Sequence record: PP400781
Reading direction: 5' to 3' (one strand)
DNA: 64,000 bases
Origin: Escherichia phage FL20
A model generated the notes under the pieces. The model saw nothing but the letters and a program-made list of their open reading frames with translations. It searched no databases and was not told the origin of the DNA. The position numbers were made by a program, and so were the translations under genes. Of this stretch, positions 1 to 25,252 are shown piece by piece (the first letter of the stretch is position 1; each line of letters opens with the position of its first letter).

Positions 1-411
1 TTCGAGTTCCATCATGATGGTACTTTCTATTCTCCGGGTAATGGTAACTTTAACGATGTTTATATTCGTTCTGATGACCGTCTTAAGATTAATAAAGAAG
101 AGTTAGAAAACGGAGCACTTGAAAAAGTATGCCGTCTGAAAGTTTATACTTACGATAAAGTTAAGTCTATTAAAGATCGTAGTGTGATTAAACGTGAAGC
201 TGGTATTATTGCTCAGGATCTTGAAAAAGAATTGCCGGAAGCTGTATCGAAAGTTGAAGTTGATGGATCTGACGTACTGACAATTTCTAACTCGGCAGTG
301 AATGCTCTTTTAATTAAGGCTATTCAGGAAATGAGTGAAGAAATTAAAGAATTGAAAACTCCTTTCTTTACTAAAATTGCTCGCAAAATTAGTAAATATT
401 TTAAATTCTAA
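1..411 (+). CDS. 37: Long tail fibre distal subunit gp37, C-terminal fragment (5' end outside window)
   Basis: Frame 1 is open from nt 1 to TAA at 409-411. Translation (FEFHHDGTFYSPGNG...SDDRLKINKEELENGALEKV...GIIAQDLEKELPEAV) resembles the C-terminal intramolecular chaperone domain of T-even fibre proteins; lies directly upstream of gp38. Confidence 0.75.
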   Translation, partial: FEFHHDGTFYSPGNGNFNDVYIRSDDRLKINKEELENGALEKVCRLKVYTYDKVKSIKDRSVIKREAGIIAQDLEKELPEAVSKVEVDGSDVLTISNSAVNALLIKAIQEMSEEIKELKTPFFTKIARKISKYFKF

Positions 412-448
412 CAACAAGGGGGCAACGCCCCCCTTTGGAGTATAAATT

Positions 449-1228
449 ATGGCAGTAGTTGGTGTTCCTGGTTGGATTGGAAGTTCAGCCGCAAATGAAA
501 CAGGGCAACGATGGATGAGTCAAGCGGCTGGTCAATTAAGATTGGGTGTTCCTTGCTGGATGAGTCAATTTGCAGGTCGCTCGCGAGAAATTATTCATAC
601 ACTTGGTGCAGACCATAACTTCAATGGTCAGTGGTTCCGTGATAGATGCTTTGAAGCAGGTAGTACACCTATAGTGTTTAATATCACTGGAGATTTAGTA
701 TCATATTCTAAAGATGTTCCTTTATTCTTTATGTACGGAGATACACCGAATGAATATGTTCAGTTGAATATACACGGCGTAACGATGTATGGACGTGGCG
801 GTAATGGCGGTAGCAATGGTCCTGGATCAGCCGGGGGGCATTGTATTCAAAATGATATTGGTGGGAGACTAAGAATTAATAATGGAGGTGCTATCGCTGG
901 CGGCGGTGGCGGTGGCGGTGGCGGTAACAGGGGTCGACTAGTATTTGGTGGTGGCGGTGGTCGCCCATTCGGTGCTGGTGGGTCTTCCTCGAATATGGGT
1001 TCTGGTGCAACCGCTGGCACTATTTACGCTCCGGGTCAAGGATCTGTTGGTTCGGGGTCTCTTAGTGCATATACAGGCGGTGCGGGCGGTAACGTTGGTG
1101 CTGCTGGAGGAAGATGTAATACTCACGGTAACGGTACAGAATATAACGGCGGAGCTGCTGGTTATGCTGTTATAGGGTCTGCTCCAACGTGGCAAAATCG
1201 CGGAGCTATTTACGGACCGGCTGTTTAG
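449..1228 (+). CDS. 38: Tail fibre adhesin gp38, T2/T6 type with glycine-rich motifs
   Basis: 259 aa; conserved N-terminus ([13 protein letters not shown]...[53 protein letters not shown]) then poly-Gly blocks separating short variable segments, as in T2-type gp38; position after gp37. Confidence 0.85.
895..930 (+). repeat. GGC/GGT codon microsatellite encoding a poly-glycine run in gp38
   Basis: Sequence gctggcggcggtggcggtggcggtggcggtaac read directly; encodes GGGGGGGGG. Confidence 0.7.
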
Positions 1229-1291
1229 ACGCAATTATAAAAAGAATTAAGGAAACTCCCACGGAAGGGAACTACTAAGGAGAAAACGGCT

Positions 1292-2225: not shown

Positions 2226-2262
2226 AAGGGGAAGCCTTTCGGCCTCCCCCTTCTTTTTATTG
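2226..2262 (+). terminator. Rho-independent terminator after t
   Basis: GC-rich hairpin ggggaagcc-tttc-ggcctcccc (one mismatch) followed by cttcttttta T-run. Confidence 0.6.
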
Positions 2263-2505
2263 GCGCATAGAAGCCCCTGAATCACATTTTGACGCTGTAT
2301 GATGAAAACATGTAGCGTACCAGTCATCGGCTTGTTTGTCTTCGTCAGAAAACGCGTAATTTCGTTGTATGCCGTTTTCTACTTTGACCAGTGCAATAGC
2401 TGTTTCTGGAAGATCAATCAATCGGACAAAATCACCATCTTCCCACTCTACACGAGCAATATCATAGCCCATCTCAAAGTATACAATCGCTTGTTCTAAT
2501 TTCAT
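2257..2505 (-). CDS. Hypothetical protein (position of asiA in T4 but no recognisable similarity)
   Basis: 82-aa ORF, first minus-strand gene after t; does not resemble the remembered AsiA sequence. Confidence 0.4.
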   Translation of the reverse strand: MKLEQAIVYFEMGYDIARVEWEDGDFVRLIDLPETAIALVKVENGIQRNYAFSDEDKQADDWYATCFHHTASKCDSGASMRQ

Positions 2506-4219: not shown

Positions 4220-4507
4220 TTATTTTCTGTTGTGGTCACGATATGTTTTAAAATATCCCTCGTACCACGGTAAAACATCTGGATTTTTACCACTATACAG
4301 ACCTTTAACCATCATGTCAATAAGGCCATCTGGTGTTTGATAGTTTCCAGCTTTTATAAGCTCTCTGATTAAAATCTCTCTGTATATGTCTTTAGGATCT
4401 TCGTAATCAACTTGTATTGTGGTTGTGGTCTCATTCAATTTGGTTTCTGGAGTATCTCGCATCGCCTTCCACCAATCTTTTGTAATCTTCATGTTATTGA
4501 ATTGCAT
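4220..4507 (-). CDS. Hypothetical protein
   Basis: 95-aa ORF in array. Confidence 0.4.
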   Translation of the reverse strand: MQFNNMKITKDWWKAMRDTPETKLNETTTTIQVDYEDPKDIYREILIRELIKAGNYQTPDGLIDMMVKGLYSGKNPDVLPWYEGYFKTYRDHNRK

Positions 4508-4518
4508 AATTTAACCTC

Positions 4519-5277
4519 TTACTTGCAAACGTATTGATCTACATCAATTGCGCCACCGAATGTAGGATGACGTTTTTCAAATCGAATAGTTCCGTCGTTT
4601 GGTTCGAAAACGGAGTATTCATATAGATCTTTCTTGCCAACATTCTTATAAAACCCGCCTTTCGTCATAACGGTTTCTTGTACGTTTGCTTTGTGTACGT
4701 TGTATTCGTCAATGTATACAAAATCAACCATCTTCCCATTTTTAATGGTTACTTTAAGATCTCCTGGTTGATTTCCATATTTGGCATACAGTGGCGCTTC
4801 TTTAATTTTTGTGGAAATTCCATCTTTCATACTCCACTCATAACGAACGGTGCATTGATAGGTAAAAGTTTCGACCTTCGGTTCTTCCACCACTTTTTCT
4901 TCCTGTTTCGGTTGTTCTTCTTCAACCTTCACAGAAGTCTCTGAATCGCTTTCTGACGCGGTTTCTTCTTTAGGTAATACATTCATCAAATTTTGGATTT
5001 GAGCGTTGTATACAGCCTCCAGTGGCTGGATCTGCCCGATATTGATCATTGTATCACGAACAGTTTTATTCCAGTTGAGTTGCTCTTGTTTAAGAGACGG
5101 ATCAATCTTAACAGCCTTAACATATACTTCATGAAGTTTCGAATCCAGTGCGGAGATTGACTCATTAGCACAAATAAACTTCTCTGATTTGGTAGTGGCT
5201 TTAGCGCAATCAAAGGACGCAGCATTAGCACCGAAAGCAGTAGCGGAAAGAACGATAGCAGCGATAATGTTTTTCAT
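4519..5277 (-). CDS. Secreted protein with LprI/DUF1311-like N-terminal domain (lysozyme-inhibitor-like)
   Basis: 252 aa; signal peptide MKNIIAAIVLSATAFGANA; then C-x10-C ... LDSKLHEVY ... QLNWNK pattern typical of DUF1311; Glu/Lys-rich linker; own promoter at about 5312-5340. Confidence 0.55.
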   Translation of the reverse strand: MKNIIAAIVLSATAFGANAASFDCAKATTKSEKFICANESISALDSKLHEVYVKAVKIDPSLKQEQLNWNKTVRDTMINIGQIQPLEAVYNAQIQNLMNVLPKEETASESDSETSVKVEEEQPKQEEKVVEEPKVETFTYQCTVRYEWSMKDGISTKIKEAPLYAKYGNQPGDLKVTIKNGKMVDFVYIDEYNVHKANVQETVMTKGGFYKNVGKKDLYEYSVFEPNDGTIRFEKRHPTFGGAIDVDQYVCK

Positions 5278-5311
5278 AATATATTCCTCAATGTTTTGTC
5301 TTGATGGGAGT

Positions 5312-5340
5312 ATCTTACTACTCCCTTAATCCGGTGTCAA
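5312..5340 (-). promoter_or_regulatory. Sigma70-type early promoter with dyad spacer
   Basis: Minus strand reads TTGACA-ccggattaagggagtag-TAAGAT; inverted repeat gggagta/tactccc spans the spacer and -10. Confidence 0.55.
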
Positions 5341-23839: not shown

Positions 23840-25252
23840 TTAGAAAGTCATGTTATTTGCTAGCTCGTCGAGTTTTTCTCGTTTCTCGGCTTGCTGTGCG
23901 CTTTGTGGTTTAACTTGTGCATTCTCCTGATCTGCGATCTGGTTTGGTACTTCATACCAACGCTGATTTCCTTTTTTCACACCAACGTTAAACCGTGAAT
24001 AGTAGTTCTTATCACCGTAACGAGATTTAATCTGCTTCATGAGTTGGACGCCCATTTTAGCCAGGTCTTCGGTTTCGATAACACCCAACATAAAATCTGC
24101 TGTAGCCGGAAGACCTGCTGATTCAGCGGTATCACTCATGTTAAGGTCGGAAGCATCCCAACCCGCGCGGGTAGTCTGTGCTGCAGTCCAACCAACAACA
24201 TCCCACTTAACAAAAAATCCTCGCAGTTCTTCCGCAATCGCCTTAACTAGTGTGTAACTATTTTCAGAGTATACACGCAAGCGAGACGATGCGCAAATCC
24301 CCAGATAGTCAACAATCACAACATCAGGTTTAAACTGTTTCTTGAGTCGCAATTCATTCATTAACGCTTCAAAGTGATTGGAGTTTGCGCCACCAGTCGG
24401 ATACTGCTTGATCATCAATTTTCCAACCGGACGATCTCCGATCTTCTTATTCTTAACACGCTTCATGCGTGCGGAATATTCCGCAAAAGAAACATTACCA
24501 TTATCCAATTCATCTAATGTAATGTCAAGCAAGTTTGCGTCGATACGTTTGGCTACGACATGCTCTGCCATCTCCATTGAGATATACAATACATCATAAC
24601 CACATTCCATATAATCCGCAGCAAGAGAACATAATCCAAGCGATTTACCAACATTTACACCAGCCAACAACACATTTAGCGTTTTTCTTTCCGCACCTCC
24701 TTTCGTGATTTTATTCAACATCGGCAGCTTAAACGGGATCTTATTCGCCTTAGTCTGATATAGCAAGAATCGTTTTTCAAAGTCATTAAACCAGTCATGA
24801 CCTACATCAGAATCAAACGTAATGGATAGTGCTTCCTGCATGATCTCAGGAATAGCACCCTCACTCGGCAATTTCTTATTCTGTTTCTCTTTTGGTAGTT
24901 GTGCGTTCGCCTGAATCTCTAGCGCCCGTGACATTGCATTATACATGGCACGGTCACGAATAAATTTTTCGGTTTCCTTCATTAACCAATCAAGGTCTTC
25001 CGGTGTATTCTCCAGCGAATCGAGAAGAGTTTTAGCCCCTTCATATGTTGTCTGATTGCCTCTCTCCTTGTCTAAAGCAATCTGTAATGCAGTTGGCGTA
25101 GGAATATTGGAATATTCGTCTACGTGCTTTTTAATCAGCTTATAAATCAGTTTTTCTTCGTCTTCGGTGAAGTAGTCCGCTTTAAGGTGAGGCCATACAT
25201 TCGTAAAGAATGCGCCATTGTAAATCAACTGTGAAAAGATGGTTTTAATCAT
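23840..25252 (-). CDS. 41: Replicative DNA helicase gp41 (DnaB-like)
   Basis: 470 aa; Walker A LLAGVNVGKSLGLCSLAADY; blocks YISMEMAE, KQYPTGGA, VIVDYLGIC, ESAGLPATADFMLGVIETE, IKSRYGDKN collinear with T4 gp41. Confidence 0.9.
   Translation of the reverse strand: MIKTIFSQLIYNGAFFTNVWPHLKADYFTEDEEKLIYKLIKKHVDEYSNIPTPTALQIALDKERGNQTTYEGAKTLLDSLENTPEDLDWLMKETEKFIRDRAMYNAMSRALEIQANAQLPKEKQNKKLPSEGAIPEIMQEALSITFDSDVGHDWFNDFEKRFLLYQTKANKIPFKLPMLNKITKGGAERKTLNVLLAGVNVGKSLGLCSLAADYMECGYDVLYISMEMAEHVVAKRIDANLLDITLDELDNGNVSFAEYSARMKRVKNKKIGDRPVGKLMIKQYPTGGANSNHFEALMNELRLKKQFKPDVVIVDYLGICASSRLRVYSENSYTLVKAIAEELRGFFVKWDVVGWTAAQTTRAGWDASDLNMSDTAESAGLPATADFMLGVIETEDLAKMGVQLMKQIKSRYGDKNYYSRFNVGVKKGNQRWYEVPNQIADQENAQVKPQSAQQAEKREKLDELANNMTF

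Follow-up and report, generated by a model that had tools for sequence, protein, structure and literature searches.

Proteins of the LprI (DUF1311) family have been described in several bacteria, but the family name overstates what is known of their function. M. tuberculosis LprI combines a DUF1311 domain with an MliC domain, and the authors of the ScwA study attributed its lysozyme inhibition to the MliC part (PMC7933661). ScwA of Salmonella, which has the LprI domain only, conferred no lysozyme resistance; this periplasmic protein carries its LprI domain at the C-terminus, controls the levels of MltD and causes lysis when overproduced (PMC7933661). In the MliC/PliC inhibitors it is the SGxxY loop that binds the lysozyme active site (PMC8334348), and Brucella PhiA did not inhibit lysozyme in vitro. 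LprI proteins with a signal peptide have also been predicted to be T6SS immunity proteins against cell-wall effectors that act in the periplasm. This role has been shown in one case, that of Etsi4, which rescues the toxicity of Etse4, and orphan T6SS immunity genes are common. Among phage proteins, T4 Spackle (gp61.3) inhibits the gp5 lysozyme selectively and stoichiometrically. A literature search turned up no functional study of RB49p262, the ortholog of the gene described here, or of any other phage LprI protein.

The gene studied here lies in Escherichia phage FL20 (PP400781). The window, i.e. the whole stretch of 64,000 nucleotides that was analysed, begins near the 3' end of the long-tail-fibre genes, takes in holin t, gp52 and rIIB/rIIA and continues into the early region. 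Over the 2 kb around the open reading frame, identity to Escherichia phage RB49 (Krischvirus, Straboviridae) and to some 60 relatives is 97.7%. The product shares 99.2% identity with RB49p262 (NP_891833), which is annotated as a 'hypothetical protein', and matches PHROG 14799, whose function is listed as unknown, over its full length (E=4e-155). The features of the locus are as follows.

4519-5277, minus strand: coding sequence of 252 amino acids plus stop codon, ATG start, ortholog of RB49p262 (reading of the ORF and homology)
5312-5340, minus strand: sigma70-type promoter, -35 TTGACA at 5340-5335, 17-nt spacer, -10 TAAGAT at 5317-5312 (10 of 12 consensus matches)
5306-5325, minus strand: inverted repeat GGGAGTA-gtaaga-TACTCCC, a perfect 7 bp, overlapping the -10 hexamer (read from the sequence)
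5285-5289, minus strand: Shine-Dalgarno sequence GAGGA, 7 nt before the ATG (from the sequence)
5221-5277, minus strand: predicted Sec signal peptide, residues 1-19, predicted cleavage between ANA and AS (sequence features, conserved in relatives)
4966-5220, minus strand: four-helix domain of the LprI/DUF1311 family, residues 20-104, with the Cys24-Cys36 pair (near-invariant module)
4876-4965, minus strand: acidic, disordered linker of residues 105-134, with many E, K, P, S and V (pLDDT below 50)
4522-4875, minus strand: hypervariable C-terminal cassette of type A, residues 135-252 (AlphaFold2 model and DNA breakpoint)

The first-pass annotation had described an early-expressed, secreted protein with a promoter of its own, and both parts of this description are borne out by the locus. 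The sigma70-type promoter has a perfect -35 hexamer and sits in the 69-nt intergenic gap that follows the upstream gene. Similar promoter-like sites precede neighbouring ORFs on the same strand. Such sites are not enriched across the region (7 seen vs. 7.8 ± 3.2 expected from shuffled sequences), and those with at least 10 of 12 matches all lie on the coding strand (5 of 5). It is an established rule that sigma70-type promoters are early promoters in T4-type phages, and it is from this rule that we infer early expression of the gene. The inverted repeat at the -10 hexamer could be a regulatory or RNA-processing hairpin, or could mark the end of the upstream transcript. The N-terminus of the product reads MK, which supplies the positive charge, followed by the hydrophobic run NIIAAIVLSATAFG and then by A-N-A and A-S in accordance with the -3/-1 rule; the stretch after MK comprises 14 uncharged residues. 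These residues are kept in all close relatives, and residues 1-20 were modelled by AlphaFold2 with a pLDDT of only about 30. By these features the product is a secreted protein with a classical Sec signal peptide. There is no lipobox at the N-terminus, and the mature product is predicted to be a soluble periplasmic protein of approximately 26.5 kDa after removal of the signal peptide, in which a flexible acidic linker connects two independent modules.

Assignment of residues 20-104 to the LprI/DUF1311 family is marginal if judged by Pfam, as PF07007 (LprI) matched residues 24-76 of the FL20 product with E=3.9e-4 and 21.2 bits against a gathering score of 22. However, PF07007 was matched at E<=0.01 by 21 of 22 close relatives (best E=9.7e-6), and precomputed PF07007 matches are listed for most clusters of relatives. 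An exhaustive HMMER search of 1.84 billion representatives at E<=1e-3 returned 1727 homologs, nearly all of which align to residues 1-130; of the nearest distant homologs, 120 of 145 have a PF07007 match, the best with E=4e-29. The FL20 product retains F22, D23, C24, A27, E32, C36, D45, L48, Y52, Q66, W69, R74, Y90 and L97, each at a position where 84% or more of 148 homologs are conserved. Therefore, the 'Cys pair and LD..L..Y / Q..W' pattern noticed in the first-pass annotation is real, since it coincides with the most conserved positions of the homologs. The FL20 product lacks a second Cys pair, which about 75-80% of the nearest homologs have, and shows M77 and P85 instead. At codon 67 (window 5077-5079) the FL20 product has Leu where 21 of 21 close relatives have Arg, in the motif Q-R-x-W, and this Leu67 may account for a Pfam score just under the gathering threshold. 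AlphaFold2 placed four helices between residues 30 and 98 (pLDDT about 80-87), and the helical-bundle fold of the N-terminal domain matches the DUF1311 structure PDB 3GI7. Given the homologs, the hallmark residues and the fold match, the domain belongs to the LprI/DUF1311 family despite the marginal score.

This assignment is correct but not new, as databases already carry it: the UniProt name for the RB49 ortholog is 'Lysozyme inhibitor LprI-like N-terminal domain-containing protein', and at NCBI the copies in E. coli are called 'lysozyme inhibitor LprI family protein'. Searches of NCBIfam and PADLOC with the ORF product returned matches at noise level only. We take the RB49 ORF260c of a table from 2006 to be RB49p262. 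In that table its DUF1311 similarity was already given, with E=0.2. With the LprI/DUF1311 family, which includes M. tuberculosis LprI, ScwA and the T6SS immunity proteins Etsi4 / SED_RS06230, the protein has in common that it is apparently secreted and that its helical domain directly follows the signal peptide with the family motif A-S-F-D-C...E..IC...LD..L...Y...Q..W...R...Y. Unlike these systems, it is phage-borne and is not a lipoprotein, its C-terminal domain is polymorphic by cassette, and no effector gene adjoins it.

The domain call of the first-pass annotation holds for the N-terminal half of the protein, but it overlooked the C-terminal barrel cassette, which is the most distinctive feature of the gene. 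The linker has a net charge of -7 over residues 101-135, and pLDDT is below 50 at residues 105-130. Beyond it, residues 135-251 are confidently predicted (pLDDT 85-91) to fold into an eight-strand beta domain whose first strand contains Cys142 and whose last contains Cys251. The C-terminal domain is modelled as beta-barrel-like and closed by a disulfide between these two cysteines. Among 21 close clusters, identity in the LprI domain averages 97.3% (minimum 85.7%), whereas in the C-terminal domain of the same clusters it averages 32.7% (minimum 9.3%). The DNA tells the same story: from the upstream flank to about nucleotide 405 of the gene, Krischvirus sequences are 95-97% identical; detectable similarity then ends sharply at window position ~4870-4876 (codon ~135) and is seen again from the stop codon onwards. 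Among the relatives, cassettes of at least 8 types are known. Types A-E are 28-59% identical among themselves and types F, F2 and G 31-51%, with approximately 15% identity between the two groups. Both terminal cysteines are kept in nearly all types, and the model of type F2, although of lower confidence, is also all-beta. A module 97% conserved joined at a breakpoint to one 33% conserved, with at least 8 versions of the latter, is typical of the specificity modules of an arms race. We consider this constant module with a swappable barrel, common to virulent and temperate coliphages, to be the new and interesting element of the locus.

The overall layout, an LprI domain followed by a disulfide-closed barrel, parallels M. 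tuberculosis LprI, yet membership of the barrel in the MliC family is unsupported. No Pfam family, MliC (PF09864) included, matched the barrel at E<=10 in 22 variants and the FL20 protein. The SGxxY motif, which plugs the lysozyme active site in proteins of this kind, is absent from every variant of the C-terminal domain; the FL20 protein has KGGFY only, which is not conserved. The FL20 barrel differs in these two respects from MliC, PliC, Brucella PhiA and Neisseria ACP, and structurally it is no closer to the MliC/PliC fold than to Cap15, NHBA or FABP. No sequence or profile match to the PDB was found for the protein, barrel included, and Foldseek returned no match to the PDB at E<=1e-3; the matches of the barrel that it did list are generic eight-strand barrels (Cap15, NHBA, FABP, lipocalins) with similar scores.

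The gene is not confined to virulent phages. Most Krischvirus carry type A; the others, UPWr_E1, Phi1/GEC-3S and JSE among them, have type C, D or F. In addition, 26 of 5426 complete E. coli genomes, that of O55:H7 DEC5A being one, contain the first ~380-400 nt of the gene in the chromosome, with a nucleotide identity of 94-96%. There the copy is the terminal gene of a lambdoid prophage (with gpA terminase and Rha), lies beside the attachment site, has promoter-like and terminator-like sites of its own and carries cassette B, E or F2. The prophage, about 35 kb long in IMG/VR contigs, is integrated into the 3' end of hicB, which is annotated as truncated. Three examples of the LprI-barrel gene in the hicB prophage of E. 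coli chromosomes are:

L014, 9001-9771
L015, 6001-6780
L002, 10001-10795

In IMG/VR the gene was found on 2 Krischvirus contigs and on 9 prophage contigs, which are 23-36 kb long and have it at their end. One prophage copy keeps ~80 nt of Krischvirus sequence 3' of the stop codon, which points to direct exchange between virulent and temperate phages. The E. coli copy also resembles lambdoid morons and superinfection-exclusion genes of the Cor and T5 Llp type in being prophage-terminal, in having its own signals and in encoding a putatively envelope-exported product. However, its product is unlike Cor and Llp in that it is not a lipoprotein and is unrelated to them in sequence.

Distant proteins with a signal peptide, an LprI domain, a linker and some other C-terminal domain occur in Klebsiella Marfavirus and in T4-like phages of Aeromonas, and LprI N-terminal domains in general pair with many unrelated C-terminal domains, including a peptidoglycan-binding SH3 domain. 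Klebsiella phage PWKp18 (Marfavirus) has an annotated spackle gene and a gene for a 250-amino-acid LprI protein about 2 kb apart, flanking the primase gene:

L016, 140-421: spackle
L016, 2501-3253: LprI protein (signal peptide, LprI domain, linker and a different C-terminal domain without the terminal Cys pair of the barrel type)

A separate observation concerns the metagenomic protein P0050 (L029, 1559-2539), in which two tandem LprI domains are followed by a C-terminal membrane domain of the T4 Imm type (PF14373).

We also looked among the phages' own genes for a partner that might drive the variability of the barrel. Masking of the phage's own receptor was rejected as the cause, since the gp37 tip and the cassette type vary independently of each other: at least 3 different tips are combined with type A, to which RB49 and kvi belong despite their unlike tips, and a single tip is common to Phi1 (type D), JSE (type F) and FL38 (type A). 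A role as antiholin-like partner of T was likewise set aside, as holin t is 95-99% identical across all cassette types, and so was tuning to the phage's own gp5, whose lysozyme domain is 94-100% identical in 59 of 59 genomes and does not co-vary with the cassette. The immediately downstream gene, p261 (window 4220-4507, minus strand; 95 amino acids, no Pfam match), was considered as a cognate partner and discarded. It has two alleles, roughly half identical by eye, and these do not correspond one-to-one with cassette types, as phages with cassettes A and C have allele 1 and those with D and F have allele 2. In p260, the gene that follows, 3 of 4 phages are identical and the fourth differs by one residue; together with the alleles of p261, this indicates that the variable tract sometimes reaches past the cassette. 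Since the cassette does not co-vary with the gp37 tip, holin t, gp5 or p261, the driver of barrel polymorphism is probably not phage-encoded.

As to function, we tentatively favor the possibility that the protein is a periplasmic binder that neutralizes foreign proteins attacking the cell wall, giving exclusion or immunity. Made from its early sigma70-type promoter and exported to the periplasm of the infected cell or lysogen, it would bind stoichiometrically and neutralize such attackers as they arrive there. The first candidate targets would be the tail-associated muramidases of superinfecting phages, in a Spackle-like mode carried out by an unrelated protein. The near-invariant LprI module would engage a conserved target or scaffold, an idea with which the equal conservation of the gp5 lysozyme domain across Krischvirus agrees, and recognition of a variable, non-self partner would fall to the swappable barrel. 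Several observations point in this direction. The signal peptide, two Cys pairs, promoter and ribosome binding site suggest a periplasmic location and early expression; membership in the LprI family connects the protein with the T6SS immunity role of LprI proteins that have a signal peptide; and the presence of the gene in both virulent Krischvirus and, as a terminal, moron-like gene, in a lambdoid prophage suggests a function useful to both lifestyles, as exclusion or immunity would be. The contrast in conservation between the two modules, the lack of a detectable Spackle or Imm in Krischvirus and a Tad2-like gene nearby also speak for this reading. Furthermore, RB49 gp5 carries a Phage_lysozyme domain (L012, 12150-13952), whereas the RB49 endolysin p102 is a Peptidase_M15_4 (L012, 1719-2108). 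Krischvirus therefore uses different peptidoglycan chemistries for entry and exit, and a blocker of muramidases would hit incoming tails but spare the phage's own lysis. The fusion of LprI domains to a domain of the T4 Imm type in P0050 is also consistent with exclusion, but we downgraded it from strong guilt-by-association because it is a singleton on an uninformative 5-kb contig.

The comparison with T4 Spackle needs some qualification. Spackle is also an early, Sec-exported, disulfide-containing periplasmic phage protein, and the proposed logic is the same. However, it is a single helical domain of 97 amino acids and highly conserved, whereas the FL20 protein is polymorphic and has no sequence similarity to it (BLASTP against gp61.3, E=0.63, no homology). 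Neither Spackle nor Imm was detectable in Krischvirus when the window and RB49 53-163 kb were searched; tblastn with Spackle against these sequences gave one in-frame chance match only, inside a 470-amino-acid ORF at 23840-25252 that we take to be the gp41 helicase. The idea of the LprI protein as a replacement for Spackle was weakened by Marfavirus, in which an annotated spackle gene coexists with the gene for an LprI protein. The analogy would be functional only.

A stronger version of the exclusion proposal strikes us as doubtful. It would make the gene a polymorphic exclusion locus exchanged between virulent T4-type and lambdoid phages, with LprI engaging a muramidase (e.g. gp5), the barrel picking the invader and the protein functionally replacing Spackle and Imm in Krischvirus; the suggestion that such a locus would be the phage counterpart of polymorphic T6SS immunity is part of this same doubtful claim. 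Even for the broader exclusion reading there is contrary evidence. ScwA confers no lysozyme resistance and PhiA does not inhibit the enzyme in vitro, the barrel has no MliC match, SGxxY motif or PDB sequence match and only generic structural matches, and between cassette type and the gp5 lysozyme of the same phage there is no co-variation. To our knowledge, no lysozyme is known to be inhibited by an LprI domain on its own. The superinfection-exclusion or lysozyme-inhibitor interpretation offered in the first-pass annotation may be called reasonable, but it leans on a family name that overstates the evidence.

Immunity to T6SS or bacteriocin attack is an unlikely alternative on present evidence, despite being the only experimentally supported role of LprI/DUF1311 proteins with a signal peptide in enterobacteria. 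The protein, which has the signal peptide and LprI domain of the T6SS immunity proteins, would neutralize delivered peptidoglycan hydrolases that act in the periplasm, so that the infected cell or lysogen survives its competitors, and barrel polymorphism would match that of the effectors. Cassette polymorphism does resemble polymorphic effector-immunity systems, the frequency of orphan immunity genes would account for a lone gene, and the moron position in the prophage fits lysogenic conversion. However, no effector or T6SS gene adjoins the gene in phage or prophage, where the neighbors are small hypothetical genes, hicAB and yncJ. Moreover, LprI is the specificity element in known immunity proteins but the invariant part here, and it is hard to see what a virulent phage with a short latent period would gain.

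We give a similarly low probability to masking of the envelope, by which the barrel would bind a variable periplasmic or outer-membrane component of the host (the periplasmic face of a receptor, or parts of Tol/Ton) and block other phages or colicins, with LprI as scaffold or anchor. T5 Llp, which masks FhuA from the periplasmic side, is a precedent, the TonB-like acidic linker with its prolines could span a periplasmic distance, and the pairing of LprI domains with many unrelated C-terminal domains, SH3 among them, suits a scaffold. The independence of the cassette from the phage's own gp37 tip (type A with at least 3 tips, and one tip with types A, D and F) argues against this explanation, as does the fact that the FL20 protein is no lipoprotein; the barrel also varies far more than the envelope proteins of E. 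coli do.

A ScwA-like modulator appears rather improbable. The LprI module would in this case bind or stabilize lytic transglycosylases or other peptidoglycan enzymes of the host, resulting in a more stable envelope or a shift in lysis timing. Although the invariant N-terminal domain fits a conserved host target, and the gene lies only ~2.3 kb from holin t, the hypervariable barrel would be left unexplained and the holin shows no co-variation, being 95-99% identical in all cassette types. The precedent itself cuts both ways, for ScwA controls MltD levels and causes lysis on overproduction, but differs in architecture, its LprI domain being C-terminal (PMC7933661). Finally, a calycin-like barrel for a small ligand with no part in exclusion, e.g. 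for scavenging or sensing a periplasmic small molecule, is very unlikely, even though fatty-acid-binding proteins and lipocalins are the best Foldseek matches and Cap15 is a nucleotide-binding barrel.

If the protein does act in exclusion or immunity, it would explain how T4 relatives that lack Spackle and Imm exclude competitors. Such relatives are widely used in phage therapy cocktails, and from the cassette type one could then predict both the resistance of lysogens and which phages of a cocktail interfere with one another. The large DUF1311/LprI family would gain a biochemical role that can be tested, and virulent and temperate coliphages would be seen to draw specificity cassettes from one pool. 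If the protein has no such role, this is an ordinary accessory gene, already labelled LprI-like in databases.

The surroundings of the gene deserve mention. The ortholog of RB49p255 (window 2257-2505, minus strand; 82 amino acids), annotated as hypothetical, has a Tad2-like Pfam match (27.9 bits against a cut-off of 25). Tad2 is Thoeris anti-defence 2, and its presence nearby suggests that the gene lies in an accessory counter-defence region. At the start of the window, the region of the tail-fibre tip and adhesin (1-1237, plus strand, including an ORF at 449-1228) is mosaic. It is missing from RB49 and found at full length in only a few Krischvirus (kvi, MIZ4/5, FL15), and parts of it match 395 phage records, including Tequatrovirus and phages of Yersinia, Salmonella and Cronobacter, mostly at 80-95% identity, which indicates that receptor-binding modules are exchanged across genera.
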